Positions 386-6,571 of a stretch of DNA of 21,928 nucleotides are shown piece after piece. This stretch comes from a virus (lineage: Duplodnaviria; Heunggongvirae; Uroviricota; Caudoviricetes). The position numbers and the translations under genes are program-made. The notes beneath the pieces are model-generated. The model did not search any database, was not told where the DNA came from, and was given only the letters and a program-made list of their open reading frames with translations. Positions within the stretch are counted from its first letter, which is position 1. Each line of letters opens with the position of its first letter. The stretch lies in IMG/VR virus record IMGVR_UViG_2651869749_000015; one strand, 5' to 3'.

Positions 386-1609
386 ATGGCGCTGTCTGAT
401 GCGTGGTTGCGTTCAGTTGTTGGAAAGGAACGTGATAAGGTTTTGGTTAAATCCGATCGTGATGGTCTGTCTGTCAGAGTATCACCGAAAGGTCGCGTAG
501 TGTTCCAATATCGTTATCAATGGGCAGGGAAAGGTGAGCGTCTTGATATCGGAACTTACCCGGCAACTGGATTAAAAGAGGCCAGAGAAGAAGTTATCCG
601 TCTCCGTGGTGAACTCGAGTCAAACCGCAATCCACGATTGGTCAAGCAGGCAGAAAAACGCAAAGCTACTGAAGCCATGACTGTAGAGTCTGTGATCCGT
701 GCTTGGTATGAAGCATATTGTGTAAAAAATAAAAAAGGTGCTGAGCAGATACTCCGCTCATTTGAACTGCACCTGTTCTCTAAAATCGGGAGTATCCCTC
801 ACGATGCAGCTACATTGCATGATTGGTTAGAGGTCTTGGAGCCTCTTAGCACTAAGACTCCAGCAATAGCTGACCGATTGCTAATTAACGCAAAGCAGGC
901 CCATGTCTGGGCGTATAAGAGAAAGCTCATTGAAACTCGCCCGCTGTCGGATATCACAGGTAAAGATATGGATATCCGTAAAGGTCAGAAGAAACGGTTT
1001 CTGACACATGATGAAATTAAAATCCTTTATGCTGCGATCGATGGTTCTCGAATGGTTCCTAAATACCGGGCCTTCATTAAACTATTGTTGCATTTTGGCT
1101 GCCGTAGTTCAGAGCTAATTACCGCTAGGGTGGACGATTTTGATTTCATTAATAAGGTATGGACTGTACCGCCAGAACGACATAAGACAGGGGAGATAAC
1201 AGGCGAACCACTAAAGCGGCCCATTATTGGGCCGGTTGAAGAGCTTATAAAATACGTTATCTCTATGAACAACGGTTCCGATATGCTTTTTACTAAGGAA
1301 GGAAGCAGGGAGCCAGTTGGTCGGACATCATTGCAGTCGCTGCCTTACAATTTAATGCAGTTCGCATGGCGACGTTTGGGGTATCAATTCCCTCATTGGT
1401 CTCTTCATGATTTGAGGCGAACAGCACGAACAAACTTTTCTGATCTTACTGCGCCTCATATTGCAGAAATTATGCTTGGTCATAAGTTGCCAGGGGTATG
1501 GCAGGTTTATGACAAGAGCGATTATCTAGAAGAACAGCGTAAAGCCTACCAGGTATGGTGGGAGAGGGTTGAATTGATAGTTGCTTGTATTAGCTCAGAC
1601 CCCAACTGA
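386..1609 (+). CDS. int: Tyrosine site-specific integrase (P4-like family with N-terminal arm-binding domain)
   Basis: 407 aa ORF. Catalytic signature residues are visible: R in FGCRSSEL, H-x-x-R in HDLRRTART, H in LGHKLPG and Y in VYDKSDY. It sits directly beside the prfC junction. SD-like AGGTGA lies 3 nt upstream of the ATG. Confidence 0.92.
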   Translation: MALSDAWLRSVVGKERDKVLVKSDRDGLSVRVSPKGRVVFQYRYQWAGKGERLDIGTYPATGLKEAREEVIRLRGELESNRNPRLVKQAEKRKATEAMTVESVIRAWYEAYCVKNKKGAEQILRSFELHLFSKIGSIPHDAATLHDWLEVLEPLSTKTPAIADRLLINAKQAHVWAYKRKLIETRPLSDITGKDMDIRKGQKKRFLTHDEIKILYAAIDGSRMVPKYRAFIKLLLHFGCRSSELITARVDDFDFINKVWTVPPERHKTGEITGEPLKRPIIGPVEELIKYVISMNNGSDMLFTKEGSREPVGRTSLQSLPYNLMQFAWRRLGYQFPHWSLHDLRRTARTNFSDLTAPHIAEIMLGHKLPGVWQVYDKSDYLEEQRKAYQVWWERVELIVACISSDPN

Positions 1610-1880
1610 CCGTTTGCATAGCTAGAACGAAATAAAATCTGACTGTCCGTTTTGAGCGACAACTAGACCTCAAAATATCTGTTGGATAATGGGGGTAAAA
1701 TACACTTTAAAAAAATATGCTTAATAAGTAACTTATTTTGTTTAAATTTATGAAACACTCTCTAAATTATCTCTTATAATTTAACATTCTTTCTTGATTA
1801 TATGTGTAAAAATATAGTTAAAAATGTTAACTGAGATGCGTGTGTTATTAATGTGTTGATTTCTAATGTTGTTTTTGTTT

Positions 1881-1908
1881 GCGCCTTGAATGCAAGGCGC
1901 TATTTATC
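1881..1908. terminator. GC-rich hairpin between the convergent 3' ends of int and the cargo operon (possible terminator)
   Basis: GCGCCTT-gaatgc-AAGGCGC (7 bp stem, 6 nt loop) at 1881-1900, followed by TATTTAT on the + strand. The T-run is weak on the minus strand, so strand assignment is uncertain. Confidence 0.3.
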
Positions 1909-2401
1909 AAGATAGTCTATTCAGATCAGTATTAGGTGTGCTTCTTTTTGATGCAAAGATGGATTTGAATCTTTTTGAGTAACTATCAAAAAACCATTTT
2001 GTATAATTACCTTCAATTTCCTCTAATATTGAATACTTCATCTCATGAAGTTCATTTTTATAATCACACTTTTTGCTTAACAAGTCTAAAGGTGTTGATC
2101 TGATAGATGACAACTGTTCATCACATAATAATTTCTTACCAATCCTTTGTGATAAATGAGACAGCTGCATTTCAATTAATGAGACACTGGAGGCTAAAAA
2201 ATTATCCAGCTCTAATTCTTTAGTATCTCTAGAAGAGAGCTTATCTAAAACATTATCAAAAAGAGATTCTATTTGCTGACAGATTTTATCCTTTTGCCTT
2301 GAAATATCATTTCGCTTGAATGCTCTATTATTGAAATAAGACGCAACAAGCCAACCAATTATAGCAATCACAATACTTGTATAATTAACCTCTTCCTGCA
2401 T
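1907..2401 (-). CDS. Small single-pass membrane protein of unknown function (third gene of the cargo operon; candidate effector)
   Basis: ORF with ATG at 2401 (GTG at 2404 one codon upstream). Hydrophobic helix YTSIVIAIIGWLVASYF near the N-terminus, followed by a polar, charged region. Its start overlaps the stop of the upstream gene by 17 nt. Low GC. Confidence 0.6.
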   Translation of the reverse strand: MQEEVNYTSIVIAIIGWLVASYFNNRAFKRNDISRQKDKICQQIESLFDNVLDKLSSRDTKELELDNFLASSVSLIEMQLSHLSQRIGKKLLCDEQLSSIRSTPLDLLSKKCDYKNELHEMKYSILEEIEGNYTKWFFDSYSKRFKSIFASKRSTPNTDLNRLS

Positions 2402-2717
2402 CACTCTCTGCCTTATTCAATCGTTCATCAATCAAGGTCTCAATACTCTTAATATCTTTATGAGTATAAGTTAGTTTTTTCTTAAGTTCGCTTAATGTGT
2501 AGCCTTCTACTCGGATCAAGCCACCAAACGCTTCATCAATAAATGAACGCCCATAACGGTTATATCCAGTCAACTCAACATGAACTAAATCATACTCTTT
2601 GAGAAAGCCTGCCAGATATTTGCGAAAGTTTTCCCCACAGCCTGCCCCATCGTCTGGATAGCGCCCGTAAGGCTTACTGTTGAAGTCTTTGATAACATTG
2701 ATGTTTTTAGTCTTCAT
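2385..2717 (-). CDS. Small STAS-like protein (DUF4325-type, anti-sigma-antagonist-like fold) - putative partner of the adjacent kinase
   Basis: 110 aa. The segment DLVHVELTGYNRYGRSFIDEAFGGLIRVEG matches the pattern I recall for DUF4325/STAS-like proteins (V-x-L-D/E-F/L-x-G-V, then SF-x-DE-x-F-G-x-L). Its ATG overlaps the stop of the upstream ATPase gene (2707-2717). Assignment is from memory, not an HMM hit. Confidence 0.6.
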   Translation of the reverse strand: MKTKNINVIKDFNSKPYGRYPDDGAGCGENFRKYLAGFLKEYDLVHVELTGYNRYGRSFIDEAFGGLIRVEGYTLSELKKKLTYTHKDIKSIETLIDERLNKAESDAGRG

Positions 2718-3816
2718 AGCTGACCTTGATGTTCCACTGAATTAAAGTACCTGGTACTTTATGAGTTAACTCATTAATTTTATCACCTTTCTTATTAGAA
2801 AGCTTGAACATACCTAAATTACTGTAAATCCAAAGGTTTCCATGTTCATTATTTAGTACTAGAGCTTTAATACTCTTACTTCCTTGACCATGTTTATCAT
2901 TGGCTGTACCGGTTACGTCTCCAATCATAGAAATTGCTATTTTTACTGCATCAGAAACAATACCAACTTTTACTTTAGAGCGCTCTTTATAACCTAAACC
3001 TATTCTCTCAAGTTCTTCGTTAACCGCAACCTTTAGATCTGGATATTTTGATTTGAGCGTACTCATAAACCATGTCTTTTGCATTACAGTTTCAGGTATA
3101 CCAACACCTTCATCATATATAGCAAGATACAGCTGGTCATGAATTACGTGACATGCAAGCCACCATCGTTTCTCATCATTATTTTTATGCGGATAGGCGT
3201 GTAAACCAACATTATTTATTGCTTCCTGAACAGCATCTGCATATGTATGTTCTGTTTCAGGTTTCATCTTGTTTTTATAAATTTCTTTCTGGATGAAATC
3301 TATAATCTCATCTCTATATTCTCCTCCTACCCCGCTAATAATGGGCAAGTTTTCAACGTTTTCGAAGACAGGTTTTAATTTTTCGCCCCGACATAAGGCG
3401 ACAAGCCCCGAGTCTCTTAAAAGCTGATTGACTTTAAAATCTGTTGAAAATAATAATCTGTACGATAAACCTTTACGAATTGAAGTTTCAACACTGGCAT
3501 AAAGTATTACTAATGCTGCCATTTTTATTGTTTTTGTATTTGTAAAATCTAAATATAATCTCTCATCAGGATTGTATTTTTTATTCCTGACGTGATTTAT
3601 CGAGTGTAGAGAGTGCGCAAAAAAATTAGGCTTATCTGGTGAATATATTGAAAACTCAGATGGAAACCGAATAAAGTTATTATCTTTTTTCTTTTGAGAT
3701 TTTTTTTGTTGACGAAACTGCGAATACTCTTTCCCTTGACGGGAAACACTTCGCTGCCATCTTTTAAAAGCCAGCCTAATTCTTACACTTTTTTCCTTAT
3801 TGGTCTTGTTTTCCAT
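2707..3816 (-). CDS. GHKL-superfamily ATPase / RsbW-SpoIIAB-like serine kinase domain protein with a basic N-terminal tail
   Basis: 369 aa. Bergerat-fold motifs in the C-terminal half: N-box QEAINNVGLHAY (residues ~197-208), G1 box IYDEGVGIP (D235-G239; confirmed as gatgaaggtgttggt on the minus strand at 3100-3114), G2-like RIGLGY, and C-terminal GTLIQWNIKV. Start ATG at 3816 is preceded by SD AGGAGA. First ~45 residues are very K/R/Q-rich. Confidence 0.75.
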   Translation of the reverse strand: MENKTNKEKSVRIRLAFKRWQRSVSRQGKEYSQFRQQKKSQKKKDNNFIRFPSEFSIYSPDKPNFFAHSLHSINHVRNKKYNPDERLYLDFTNTKTIKMAALVILYASVETSIRKGLSYRLLFSTDFKVNQLLRDSGLVALCRGEKLKPVFENVENLPIISGVGGEYRDEIIDFIQKEIYKNKMKPETEHTYADAVQEAINNVGLHAYPHKNNDEKRWWLACHVIHDQLYLAIYDEGVGIPETVMQKTWFMSTLKSKYPDLKVAVNEELERIGLGYKERSKVKVGIVSDAVKIAISMIGDVTGTANDKHGQGSKSIKALVLNNEHGNLWIYSNLGMFKLSNKKGDKINELTHKVPGTLIQWNIKVSYED

Positions 3817-3981
3817 GTGTCTCCTATCAATATGCTGTTCTTTTCATACTACGAATGATAGTACAATTAAACCAAGATTGGTATACAGACTACACGTCGT
3901 CCAGCACAAAAATTTTGTTGGTGGGTGAGATTTAAAAACTTAGTTAAATCATGTAGATACGATTGATTGAGTATAAAAATA

Positions 3982-4023
3982 CCGTTCTTAGCCATGCTCA
4001 AGAACGGCTTGGTTTTGTTGTTG
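3982..4023. terminator. Hairpin with flanking T/A runs; likely bidirectional intrinsic terminator insulating the cargo operon from the early-left operon
   Basis: CCGTTCTT-agccatgctc-AAGAACGG (8 bp stem) at 3982-4007, followed by CTTGGTTTTGTTGTTG on + and preceded by ATAAAAATA, which gives a T-run on the minus strand. Confidence 0.4.
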
Positions 4024-4563
4024 ATAAAAATACTAAAGCTTTAACGAGTCTTAAATCAGTATTGAAATAAAAAACTCAAATTAATTAATAAGAGGTTTGT
4101 TATTGAAAAAACATAACCCAAGAAAATTCATTAATTTTGAGTTTCAATTAACACAAAACACAACTTAATAATGCTCATGAATATATTAAATCATTAATGC
4201 AGATAGTATTATTACCGAATGAGAACACAGCAATTTAGCTTATTCTGCCCTATTTATACCACTGCTCCTGACCTTGTGTGGTGGCAGGAGCATCAGCCCA
4301 GTCACGATTCTTGGGTTGCTGACTTGGGGCACGATCATTACTTGACACATTCTACTTTTCTTCCTTGAGAACCTTAATATTTCCATATGTCGCTACTTTA
4401 CACTCCTGCTTTCAGGCCTACACTTCGCTTACCATTAACATATTGTATTTCTTGGTATCAGCCGATGACTTTACCCTTTTGGGGCTCGGGACATTTTCTC
4501 TTGTATCTTTCAGGAAAATATTAAATAACCATTTATCCATATAGTGATGTCAACTAATAGCTA

Positions 4564-4758
4564 CTACTCAATAATTCCAGCAAATCTGTATATCTTGTGT
4601 GATGCCCATTTATTTGGGCAGGATTTAATATCCGGATCTGGAAACTCAGGCCTGTATTTCTGGCCAGTTCTCCTGTTTACGCTGTTCCAGCGAAGAACGG
4701 TCGATACTGAAACGCCACAGAAGTCGGCGACTTGTTTAGTTGTCATTAAGTTGTTCAT
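4564..4758 (-). CDS. Excisionase-like / AlpA-family small HTH DNA-binding protein
   Basis: 64 aa, MNNLMTTKQVADFCGVSVSTVLRWNSVNRRTGQ... with a helix-turn-helix. It is the last gene of the leftward operon, on the integrase side of the prophage. Confidence 0.55.
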   Translation of the reverse strand: MNNLMTTKQVADFCGVSVSTVLRWNSVNRRTGQKYRPEFPDPDIKSCPNKWASHKIYRFAGIIE

Positions 4759-5930
4759 TACTTCACCTCCTGCGGCGGTTCCGGTAGCGGCATCCAGTGG
4801 GTTACTTTCGATGCCGGTTCTTCCCCATTGTCAGTAACTGCCCACCATTTGTTTCTCGACCAATCGTAATACCCTTCGAAGGTATCGCACTCAGTCCAGC
4901 CGTAAGACTTACCCCAACACCAAACATACTGTTTATCGTTCGGCATTCGCTCACTACAGCTTATCCAACCATCCGGAGTTACCGGAGAGTTGCCATTCAC
5001 AAGGTCAGCTCGAACATATAGCGTGTCATCATGGTGCTGATTGTGGCTGCACCACGTTAATTCGCTTAACTCGCCATCTTCTGGCCATACTCCAGCTGTT
5101 TGCAGCCAGATATGGGCTGGCGCATCTTGGCAAGGTGTATTAACTGGCAACTTGTAAGTTTGGCTTACAGGTTGGCTACCCTGAAGCATGGCCGCGCGGC
5201 AGGCATTCCACCCCTTCACATAACCGAACGCCATCAACTGATCATTCATGGCGGGCAGCATTGTGTGGGTCGTACTGATTTCCTCCGGCACTACTGGCGA
5301 TGGCTGTTTGGCTTCTAAATCAGCAATTCTGTCAACTACGGCATCGACAGCATCTGAAAAACTGAAACAGTTACTCCACTCCGGCCAGTTCCCGGTTGCT
5401 GCAAAGTACATATCTGCTAAAGCAGATTCAGCATGGTCACGCTCGTTAATGAGTTGCTCTTCGCTTTTCTCCAGTTCAGCAATACGCTTCTCTGCGGCTT
5501 CTGCCCTGCATTGTTCCCGTTGGAACATTTTGTGGGTGCGGTCGAGCGCCTCAAGTCTGGCTGCTGATGTTTTCTCTTCTGCTTCAAGCTCAACGCGCAG
5601 CTTCCCAACCGTAAGCGCAATATCCTCGTTCTCCTGGTCGCGGGATTTGATGTATTGCTGGTTTCTTTCCCGTTCATCCAGTAGTGCCAGCGCAACATTT
5701 GGATTAAAAGCAGCAATAAATTCAGCGTTTGCATAAGCCTGAACATCTGTTTCAATCAGGCAGTTAACATGACATTCCGCAATCACGCCACCGGGTTCTC
5801 CTTTCCATTTTTGACAAACAAAAACTCCTGTTAAATTGCCGTGTTGGTTAACAGATGTATGCCCTACGATGTAGCTTCCTTTAGTTGCTTTCTCTGCCTT
5901 TTCACGCAGTGCCTGATAGTCAATTGTCAT
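4758..5930 (-). CDS. Ea22-like early protein with C-terminal DUF551-like domain
   Basis: Coiled-coil-like acidic middle region and a C-terminal W/C-rich segment ending VTHWMPLPEPP. Probable start is the ATG at 5930, which overlaps the upstream stop as ATGA and has AAGG upstream; the long ORF starts at 5939. Confidence 0.55.
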   Translation of the reverse strand: MTIDYQALREKAEKATKGSYIVGHTSVNQHGNLTGVFVCQKWKGEPGGVIAECHVNCLIETDVQAYANAEFIAAFNPNVALALLDERERNQQYIKSRDQENEDIALTVGKLRVELEAEEKTSAARLEALDRTHKMFQREQCRAEAAEKRIAELEKSEEQLINERDHAESALADMYFAATGNWPEWSNCFSFSDAVDAVVDRIADLEAKQPSPVVPEEISTTHTMLPAMNDQLMAFGYVKGWNACRAAMLQGSQPVSQTYKLPVNTPCQDAPAHIWLQTAGVWPEDGELSELTWCSHNQHHDDTLYVRADLVNGNSPVTPDGWISCSERMPNDKQYVWCWGKSYGWTECDTFEGYYDWSRNKWWAVTDNGEEPASKVTHWMPLPEPPQEVK

Positions 5931-6571
5931 TCTCGCCATCCTTCACAGTTGTAATCACTACAGCCTTCAAAATCATATGGGTTGTACTGCCAGGTGATTT
6001 TTCCGCAATGCGGACAATTCCAACGCACCTTCCCGCTTCGCGACTTCTTTCTTCTGTTCTGCTTTTTCAACCAGTCAGGCATGACCAAACCTGCGCCCTG
6101 AACCATTGTTCTGCGGTTAAAGTTATTGATATTGAACGTCCGGCGCTTTGCTGAATCAGCAATGGAAAATGGCAACCAAACTATTCCTGGTTCGTTTTTG
6201 TTGGCGACGCTAAAGATGGTCGCTTTACTGAAGTCATCTGTTGGCAATCCACCGTGTTGAAGCCAGTAAACATCGTTGCCGTTCCAGCTACTTTTTTTGT
6301 AGGCCACATACGCAGTGCAATCTGGCTCAATCAGGTTTTCTGTAGGGATGTACTGGTAATCAACGTGCCACACAGCCATTGCATCCACGCTATCAGCGCA
6401 AACAGGCTGATCGATATCTCGACCACAATTCCAGGCTTTTTGGGCTTCTTCCAGCGTGTAAACATGAGCGCGATCGATATTAGAACTGTAACCATTGCCG
6501 TTATGGCAATGGAATGAAGCGTTATTACCCACAGTTTCACGCAAGCACATCATGTAAAAGCGGTTATTCAC
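5927..6571 (-). CDS. Phage early protein with C-terminal zinc-ribbon (CPHCG...C..C); YfdT-like position
   Basis: ORF 5927-6604. Probable true start is GTG at 6571, preceded by AGGAGG with a 6 nt spacer and overlapping the upstream TGA as GTGA. C-terminal CxxC...CxxC motif. Confidence 0.5.
   Translation of the reverse strand: MNNRFYMMCLRETVGNNASFHCHNGNGYSSNIDRAHVYTLEEAQKAWNCGRDIDQPVCADSVDAMAVWHVDYQYIPTENLIEPDCTAYVAYKKSSWNGNDVYWLQHGGLPTDDFSKATIFSVANKNEPGIVWLPFSIADSAKRRTFNINNFNRRTMVQGAGLVMPDWLKKQNRRKKSRSGKVRWNCPHCGKITWQYNPYDFEGCSDYNCEGWRE

Follow-up and report, generated by a model that had tools for sequence, protein, structure and literature searches.

A conserved basic N-terminal leader on a VapK/CapK-like kinase of an Escherichia coli lambdoid prophage

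It was not until 2026 that kinases combining a STAS domain with a GHKL domain were connected, through CapK and VapK, with phage defence and the sensing of DNA damage. CapK is a helix-turn-helix (HTH)–STAS–GHKL kinase which is activated by ~20-nucleotide (nt) single-stranded DNA (ssDNA) in a basic groove (W68, K237 and K239) and which phosphorylates the STAS repressor CapS (PMC13373217). VapK, a STAS–GHKL kinase that is, like CapK, directly activated by ssDNA, phosphorylates the STAS antitoxin VapS at Ser48, such that the PIN toxin VapC is freed; the C-terminal helix of VapS is functionally critical, and VapKSC as a whole is a toxin–antitoxin and anti-phage system that protects against phage Bas42 (Chambers et al., EMBO J 2026; PMC13373217). 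The subject of the present work is a cassette of three genes, here called A, B and C, in a 21,928-nt stretch of Caudoviricetes DNA (IMG/VR record IMGVR_UViG_2651869749_000015), the whole of which is referred to below as the window. Gene A encodes a STAS–GHKL protein with a strongly basic N-terminal leader. This leader, which is conserved and in part structured, is the defining module of a large and uncharacterised family that is sister to VapK.

Kinship of gene A with VapK, CapK and SpoIIAB

For comparison, the sequences of VapK, VapS and CapK were taken from the supplementary files of PMC13373217. The hidden Markov model (HMM) of the gene A family scores VapK at 46.5 bits, over the region from STAS strand β3 to the C-terminus, and CapK only weakly, at 17 bits, and hhalign of the family returns E 1.3e-5 to VapK and 1.4e-5 to CapK. 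VapS (E 2.7e-17) and gene B both belong to PF14213, and hhalign of eight gene B orthologues against VapS gives E 1.1e-3, with Ser58 of gene B one residue off the position aligned with VapS Ser48. The homology to VapK and CapK, taken with the DUF4325 partner, thus makes gene A a VapK/CapK-like kinase, and A and B a kinase–substrate pair of that type. What we infer beyond this comprises the kinase activity of gene A, the phospho-site, a ligand for the leader and the effector role of gene C.

As in VapK, a STAS domain is fused N-terminally to a SpoIIAB-like GHKL kinase. The kinase gene leads an operon of three genes in each system, and next to it stands a gene for a DUF4325 STAS protein of ~110 amino acids (aa) that has a C-terminal helix and a Ser that is conserved; in both cases the genes are associated with mobile elements and defence islands. 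The two systems differ, however, in several respects. In VapK (302 aa), STAS strand 1 is preceded by only ~10 residues and a basic leader is lacking, whereas the family described here has a leader of 46 residues; F54 of VapK, which stacks on ssDNA, aligns with T96 of gene A, a non-aromatic and variable position; and the GHKL domain of gene A contains an extra helical insertion of ~55 aa (aa 245–300), the identity between the two proteins being ~23%. Furthermore, the third gene of VapKSC encodes the PIN nuclease VapC and that of the present cassette a membrane protein; no PIN match was found in gene C, nor in its counterparts at any of the orthologous loci.

With CapK, gene A has in common the domain order around STAS–GHKL, an N-terminal addition of similar size, its overall length (368 aa in CapK, 369 aa in gene A), the N-box Asn (CapK N218 aligns with gene A N202) and a ‘K..YPE’ segment in the GHKL insertion. 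CapS, moreover, is a STAS protein phosphorylated on Ser, and gene B is likewise a STAS partner and putative substrate. The N-terminal addition is, however, a neutral HTH in CapK (net charge 0 over 57 aa) and a basic helix plus linker in gene A. In addition, CapS is a winged-HTH repressor, whereas gene B (110 aa) lacks a DNA-binding domain and is not followed by a regulated operon: the cassette ends in a terminator-like hairpin, where CapKS is followed by a regulated immune operon. Of the CapK residues that contact DNA, K237 and K239 are not conserved, aligning with H223 and I225 of gene A, and Y58 of gene A may correspond to W68 by register from strand β1, in a region that lies outside the alignments.

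The GHKL kinase fold and local sequence matches also relate gene A to SpoIIAB/RsbW, a likeness that extends to SpoIIAA/RsbV, which are STAS substrates with the Ser at the start of helix α2 and with phosphorylation-controlled release of a partner. SpoIIAB and RsbW are nevertheless single-domain proteins of ~140–160 aa that sequester a sigma factor, whereas in gene A the kinase domain shares one polypeptide with a STAS domain of its own and a basic leader, and the output of the cassette is apparently a membrane protein. No sigma factor gene was found in or beside the cassette, and gene A does not reach the NCBIfam equivalogs for RsbW (27 bits vs 145) or SpoIIAB (23 vs 135). A sequence-only reading of the window had described the protein as a sensor kinase with ~150 residues of unknown fold ahead of its ATPase domain. 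Both descriptions need revision: the region is a STAS domain, and the protein is a kinase of the anti-sigma-factor type (SpoIIAB/VapK-like) rather than a two-component sensor kinase. The place of the gene in a kinase/STAS/membrane-protein cassette had also escaped that reading.

The fold of the body of gene A is apparent from AlphaFold2 modelling with a 110-sequence alignment (mean predicted local distance difference test score, pLDDT, 88; predicted template modelling score, pTM, 0.82), in which a beta-alpha-beta domain follows the leader and its linker and precedes a C-terminal alpha/beta sandwich. Foldseek matches to SpoIIAB (1l0o, 1til and 1th8; probability 1.0, TM score 0.63–0.67 normalised to the target) and to CheA P4 (probability ~1.0) are accompanied by the motifs expected of a GHKL domain, in that E198 and N202 of the N-box and the D and G residues of the G1 box (D235-x-G237-x-G239) and of G2 (G310-Q-G312) are invariant across the 110 sequences. 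The Pfam models stay below their gathering scores on gene A (HATPase_c 16 bits vs 27.4; HATPase_c_2 14.6 vs 26.4), the protein being too divergent for these curated models. A profile search of PDB sequences with aa 1–178 found no match at E <= 10. Equally, hhalign found no similarity between the internal STAS domain of gene A and the DUF4325 partner, and the two STAS modules are therefore not recent duplicates.

Composition, conservation and predicted structure of the leader

Gene A begins with MENKTNKEKSVRIRLAFKRWQRSVSRQGKEYSQFRQQKKSQKKKDNN, and translation of its open reading frame (ORF) reproduces exactly the K/R/Q-rich peptide to which the sequence-only reading had drawn attention. That reading placed the basic tail at 3682..3816 (aa 1–45); the charged segment in fact reaches aa 47. 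These 47 residues comprise 10 K, 6 R and 6 Q against just 4 D/E, such that the net charge is +12, while the other 322 aa hold 43 K+R against 39 D+E (net +4) and no 47-aa window beyond the first 60 residues exceeds +5. When 47 codons are drawn from the rest of the gene, a net charge of at least +12 is obtained with P ~8e-4. The GC content of the leader (34.8%) matches that of the remainder of gene A (34.1%), and local AT-richness therefore does not set the leader apart. Random stop-free ORFs with the base composition of the leader have a mean charge of +6.8 and reach +12 or more with P ~0.12; in other words, base composition could by itself account for a slight basic character of the peptide, though not for the pattern of conserved residues described below.

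The leader is evidently translated. The ATG at 3816 is preceded, at a distance of 4 bases, by the Shine–Dalgarno (SD) sequence AGGAGA, the frame is closed by a TAG 10 codons further upstream, with neither ATG nor GTG nor TTG intervening, and the internal Met99 and Met184 have no SD-like sequence upstream of them; the SD, and its absence before Met99 and Met184, had already been noted in the sequence-only reading. The presence of an SD at the first start after a stop, together with conservation of the amino acids across the family, carries the case for translation, and it is strengthened by re-examination of three seemingly tail-less family members as DNA, two of which encode the leader in frame above a mis-called start. 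These two are P0091 (basic leader at L018 1381–1500) and P0128 (L020 1186–1305).

A run of eight A residues occupies codons 37–39 of gene A. In strain ETEC1730 the run is A7, which causes a frameshift, and the annotation pipeline PGAP then calls a 350-aa ‘ATP-binding protein’ without the leader helix; the A7 may have arisen through misassembly of the homopolymer, or else it is a natural variant that switches the tail on or off. Since gene callers, PGAP included, sometimes place the start of gene A below the leader or miss the leader because of an insertion or deletion in A8, automatic annotation is at systematic risk of truncating the N-terminus of this family.

Among 5.8 billion proteins searched, 240 homologues were found. 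They come from Enterobacterales, Vibrio, Pseudomonas, Aeromonas, Shewanella and other groups, and with few exceptions they are 360–390 aa long and align over 94–100% of the query. In a close set of 121 sequences (the query and 120 listed homologues) the segment aligned with the leader has a median net charge of +10, and conservation within it is specific to position: R26 is present in 99%, Y31 in 92%, K/R35 in 85%, R19 in 83%, W20 in 71%, K27 in 65%, and N22 and L24 each in 61%. In the curated alignment, R26 is found in 110 of 110 sequences. The possibility that the tail simply reflects AT-rich DNA, which had been allowed for in the sequence-only reading, does not survive this comparison. Homologues from Pseudomonas, Vibrio and metagenomes have leaders of net +10 to +19 in which Arg is substituted for Lys, and in the GC-rich Pseudomonas genomes the charge is maintained by Arg, which rules out AT-richness as its cause. 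Indeed, the position-specific conservation of the leader in GC-rich genomes as well as in others leads to rejection of any explanation from composition.

The family is, moreover, far wider than the close set. An HMM search of 1.84 billion cluster representatives identified 2,519 relatives at E <= 1e-3, 1,609 of them at E <= 1e-10, and the distant members have leaders that are still more basic, for example MKKLPKDYRLRQARIIAKRFRRTHKKFTKRHRQ, being almost wholly Arg/Lys with scarce hydrophobic residues. In 93% of 239 full-length sequences, close and distant together, the leader is 30 aa or longer and its net charge +6 or higher, and R19, R/K26, K27 and K/R35 persist into the distant half of them. 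Conservation in ~93% of a large family marks the leader as a functional module.

The leader is not a floppy appendage. In the full-length model aa 6–26 form a helix with pLDDT 91–96, and in a separate model of aa 1–178 a helix is retained over aa 3–26 with pLDDT 92–97, which shows that the confidence is independent of the GHKL domain. The flexible linker that follows, aa 27–46, is modelled as coil with pLDDT 58–72, falling below 50 at aa 39–41 only. On a helical wheel, a polar and basic stripe (I11, A15, R19, N22, R26 and K29) lies opposite a partly hydrophobic one (13, F17, W20, V/L24 and Y31). As judged from pLDDT and residue patterns, through which docking was assessed, the hydrophobic face (F17, W20, V24) presumably lies against the STAS domain, in which case the basic stripe (R19, N22, R26) may be the exposed functional face. 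Neither Pfam nor NCBIfam has a match to the leader. A degenerate HTH was considered and rejected, as only one helix is predicted, followed by coil.

Basic N-terminal segments of 20–45 aa, with ~30% Lys/Arg, helical propensity and interspersed aromatics, are familiar from lambda N and from viral capsid arms. The leader resembles such arginine-rich motifs and basic arms without this being a claim of membership. Unlike them, it sits on a kinase, and for part of it docking on a folded domain is predicted.

What the leader may do

The reading that we tentatively prefer, and which may well prove wrong, is that the leader is the signal-sensing or ligand-capture element, for a polyanion, of a VapK/CapK-like kinase. 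A role in binding or sensing nucleic acid, which had been raised from the composition of the tail, becomes more plausible given that CapK and VapK are ssDNA-activated. Since the residues with which CapK and VapK contact DNA are not conserved in gene A, the leader is left as the obvious basic surface. Its charge would also seem to want a partner from outside the cassette: the body of A, together with B and C, is near-neutral in most orthologues, and because B and C are not consistently acidic there is no obvious protein counter-charge. Relatives activated by ssDNA, absence of the groove residues, presence of a basic leader and lack of an acidic counter-surface, taken together, point to an external polyanion, for which single-stranded nucleic acid is the obvious candidate.

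A mechanism for the cassette may be drawn, by analogy, from VapKSC. Infection or DNA damage would give rise to a polyanion as the signal, most probably a single-stranded nucleic acid, that is captured by the leader, possibly with the participation of Y58 of the STAS domain; capture would activate the GHKL kinase of gene A, which would phosphorylate Ser58 of the DUF4325 partner, gene B; and phosphorylated gene B would release the membrane protein, gene C, with arrest or killing of the cell as the outcome, whether as abortive infection or as superinfection exclusion.

Several observations weigh against this view. Deletion of the N-terminal HTH of CapK gave no phenotype (PMC13373217), from which it follows that N-terminal additions to kinases of this superfamily may be dispensable. 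In the coordinates of the published AlphaFold3 VapK–dT7 model, ~30 Å separate the DNA from the point at which STAS strand 1 begins, such that the anchor point of the leader is not at the known groove; given an arm of 46 aa, this distance neither supports nor excludes a sensing role. Conservation of W20 and Y31 is limited to the close clade, and in at least one distant member (L022, 1386–2363) the leader appears to be absent, there being stops in all three forward frames above the called start. In a comparison with PADLOC-DB 2.0, A and B are unmatched and C matches LeoBC at only E 0.014. Finally, mean-field direct coupling analysis (DCA) of 239 sequences, which is noisy (effective number of sequences, Meff, 204), couples the leader mostly to the GHKL insertion at aa 260–282 and to the loop at aa 210–214, a pattern for which a regulatory contact within the molecule is no worse an explanation than the binding of a ligand, and perhaps a better one. 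For the L022 locus, we note separately that no DUF4325 Pfam hit is on record for the downstream partner.

The stronger proposal, in which the family constitutes a separate VapK/CapK branch of at least ~1,600 clusters at 50% identity, with the groove ssDNA site lost, an Arg/Lys leader that senses nucleic acid or another polyanion and a DUF4325 protein that, once phosphorylated, switches on a membrane effector, is on the whole somewhat unlikely.

The best of the alternatives, although we regard it as unlikely, is that the leader regulates from within the protein or the complex, either docked on the STAS domain and the GHKL insertion as an autoinhibitory latch or dimerisation helix, or as a clamp on the acidic C-terminal helix of gene B, and that its basic residues make conserved salt bridges. 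Such a role would account for the very high pLDDT of the helix with and without the GHKL domain and for the conservation of small and hydrophobic residues (A15, G/A16, W20, L24), which is typical of a packing interface, and it finds a potential counterpart in the conserved acidic C-terminal helix of gene B, the equivalent helix being critical in VapS. The DCA pairs of the leader, on aa 210–214, aa 260–282, STAS α1 and the β3–α2 loop (22–76, 29–97 and 32–93), point in the same direction; they are weak, however, and both regions are rich in insertions and deletions, which inflates covariance. Some true-looking STAS pairs are recovered, but the analysis is too noisy at this Meff to decide the contacts of the leader. 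Moreover, a packing interface would need nowhere near a net charge of +10 to +19, the body of A, like B and C, is near-neutral in most orthologues, and the nearly pure Arg/Lys leaders of distant members contain few hydrophobic residues with which to pack.

Rather less probable is a membrane tether, in which the leader, as a polybasic and partly amphipathic helix, would bind anionic phospholipids and so recruit both kinase and STAS partner to the inner membrane, the location of the transmembrane product of the third gene. In favour of this, a membrane protein is encoded by the third gene in all cases, an acidic protein partner is not apparent, the aromatics W20 and Y31 adjoin basic residues and the hydrophobic moment of the query helix is moderate at 0.46–0.65. 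That of the family profile is, however, low (0.25–0.30), and the leaders of distant members are too poor in hydrophobic residues for such a role; in addition, the conserved positions (R26, N22 and the small residue at 16) are specific rather than generically amphipathic, and AlphaFold2 places the helix in a folded unit.

That the leader is functionless, either a by-product of AT/A-rich DNA above the real start or an untranslated 5' region misread as coding, is scarcely credible: the 34% GC of the cassette, the mildly basic character of random ORFs and the starts that gene callers sometimes place below the leader lend it some colour, but it has to contend with position-specific conservation in >200 sequences at 25–60% identity, GC-rich genomes included, with the SD at the first ATG after a stop, with leaders found in frame upstream of mis-called starts and with a confidently predicted helix.

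The cassette, its surroundings and its distribution

The coordinates of the cassette and of its neighbours are collected in Table 1. Genes A and B overlap by 11 nt (2707–2717) and B and C by 20 nt (2385–2404), or by 17 nt if C starts from the ATG at 2401 as in RefSeq; overlapping genes of this kind suggest translational coupling of A, B and C. In gene B, Ser58 is invariant in the eight aligned orthologues, which have in common the motif YG[RS]SF[IL][DE]E.FGGL, and the C-terminus is a conserved acidic helix (SI..LIDERI.AA). The 441-position phage family phrog_5816 matches gene B over its last 100 positions alone, and therefore appears to represent larger phage proteins with a C-terminal DUF4325, possibly fused forms. 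Gene C has a weak holin-like match (E 7.5e-4); its orthologues have an N-terminal transmembrane helix and often a C-terminal one too, and a membrane protein is the conserved third gene at every locus examined.

Table 1. Positions of the cassette, of features within it and of flanking elements in the window
Feature	Position	Strand	Remarks
Integrase gene	386..1609		P4-type
GC-rich hairpin	1881..1900	+	just past the gene C stop; bidirectional terminator-like
Gene C	1907..2404	-	165 aa; N-terminal transmembrane helix, helical cytoplasmic part; putative effector
Gene B	2385..2717	-	110 aa; DUF4325 STAS-like protein, putative VapS-like kinase substrate; Pfam PF14213 E 1e-6
Ser58 codon of gene B	2544..2546		
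Gene A	2707..3816	-	369 aa; leader–STAS–GHKL, VapK-like kinase
GHKL (Bergerat-fold) kinase/ATPase domain	2725..3261	-	aa 186–364; Foldseek, invariant motifs, sub-threshold RsbW/SpoIIAB matches
STAS domain of gene A	3382..3678	-	aa 47–145; Y58 and F91 invariant, D90 and T94 nearly so
Basic N-terminal leader	3676..3816	-	aa 1–47; net +12, isoelectric point ~11.4; kept in 93% of 239 family members
Lys/Arg-rich linker	3679..3738	-	aa 27–46 (K27, K29, Y31, K/R35, KKSQKKK); contains A8
A8 homopolymer	3700..3707		
Predicted alpha-helix	3739..3810	-	aa 3–26; AlphaFold2, both models
Shine–Dalgarno AGGAGA of gene A	3820..3825	-	from sequence; 4 bases ahead of ATG 3816
Terminator-like hairpin	3981..4008	-	upstream of gene A; insulates the cassette from leftward prophage transcription
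Excisionase gene	4564..4758		phrog_1553, E 4e-35

The cassette is carried by a lambdoid prophage of E. coli that is integrated next to yjjG. Within this prophage the cassette, itself 34% GC, forms a low-GC island (29–37% over 1610–4560, against 46.6% for the window) between the integrase and excisionase genes, an interval which is a typical slot for morons and defence genes. Rfam and promoter scans of 1600–4800 gave the two hairpins of Table 1 as the sole results above chance. The ~750 nt upstream of gene A (3817–4563) have 29–39% GC, no ORF of at least 60 aa and no Rfam match, and are co-inherited with the cassette in that they occur in the same six E. coli genomes only; they could be a promoter or regulatory region, or a decayed gene. 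On the far side of the excisionase gene, 4758–5939 holds an intact ORF of 393 aa that fuses Ead/Ea22 with DUF551, whereas the closest RefSeq relatives have nothing but DUF551 pseudogene fragments at this place beside the island.

The cassette is rare in E. coli, being present in six of 5,426 complete genomes; five of the six are from pigs, and four of those five are enterotoxigenic E. coli (ETEC). Beyond this species the trio of genes lies beside integrases in Pseudomonas aeruginosa (at mutS) and in Vibrio, in a Providencia prophage with lysis genes on one side and terminase genes on the other, next to AbiEii and PLD-helicase genes in a defence island of Pseudoalteromonas, and in distant metagenomic members. 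A megablast search of the cassette against 50,697 phage records gave no match; tblastn found one distant phage copy. In Marinobacter phage AS1 (MK088078), a sequenced temperate phage, the trio comprises AS1_41, AS1_40 and AS1_39 (L017 2345–4271) and adjoins a gene for a Cro/CI-family regulator; the leader of its kinase is MKKSSLPPGLKKKIDDKRHWRSIRHSKAHHEERLIRRKKKRER, and a basic leader is likewise found on the kinases of the distant members whose sequences were read. The cassette is horizontally acquired and carried by temperate phages. Searches of the accessible literature for DUF4325, and for STAS in a defence or transmembrane context, brought up no account of this variant.

The overall picture is of a much larger sister family, counted in representative clusters by the thousand or more at either threshold, which keeps the kinase–substrate module of VapK and CapK, has a membrane protein in place of the nuclease and a polybasic leader in place of the HTH of CapK, and lacks the residues that contact ssDNA. 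If the leader is indeed the sensor, one kinase chassis would have been re-tuned to different triggers; and if the family does form a separate branch, it would represent a new kinase-gated abortive-infection or superinfection-exclusion system of temperate phages.

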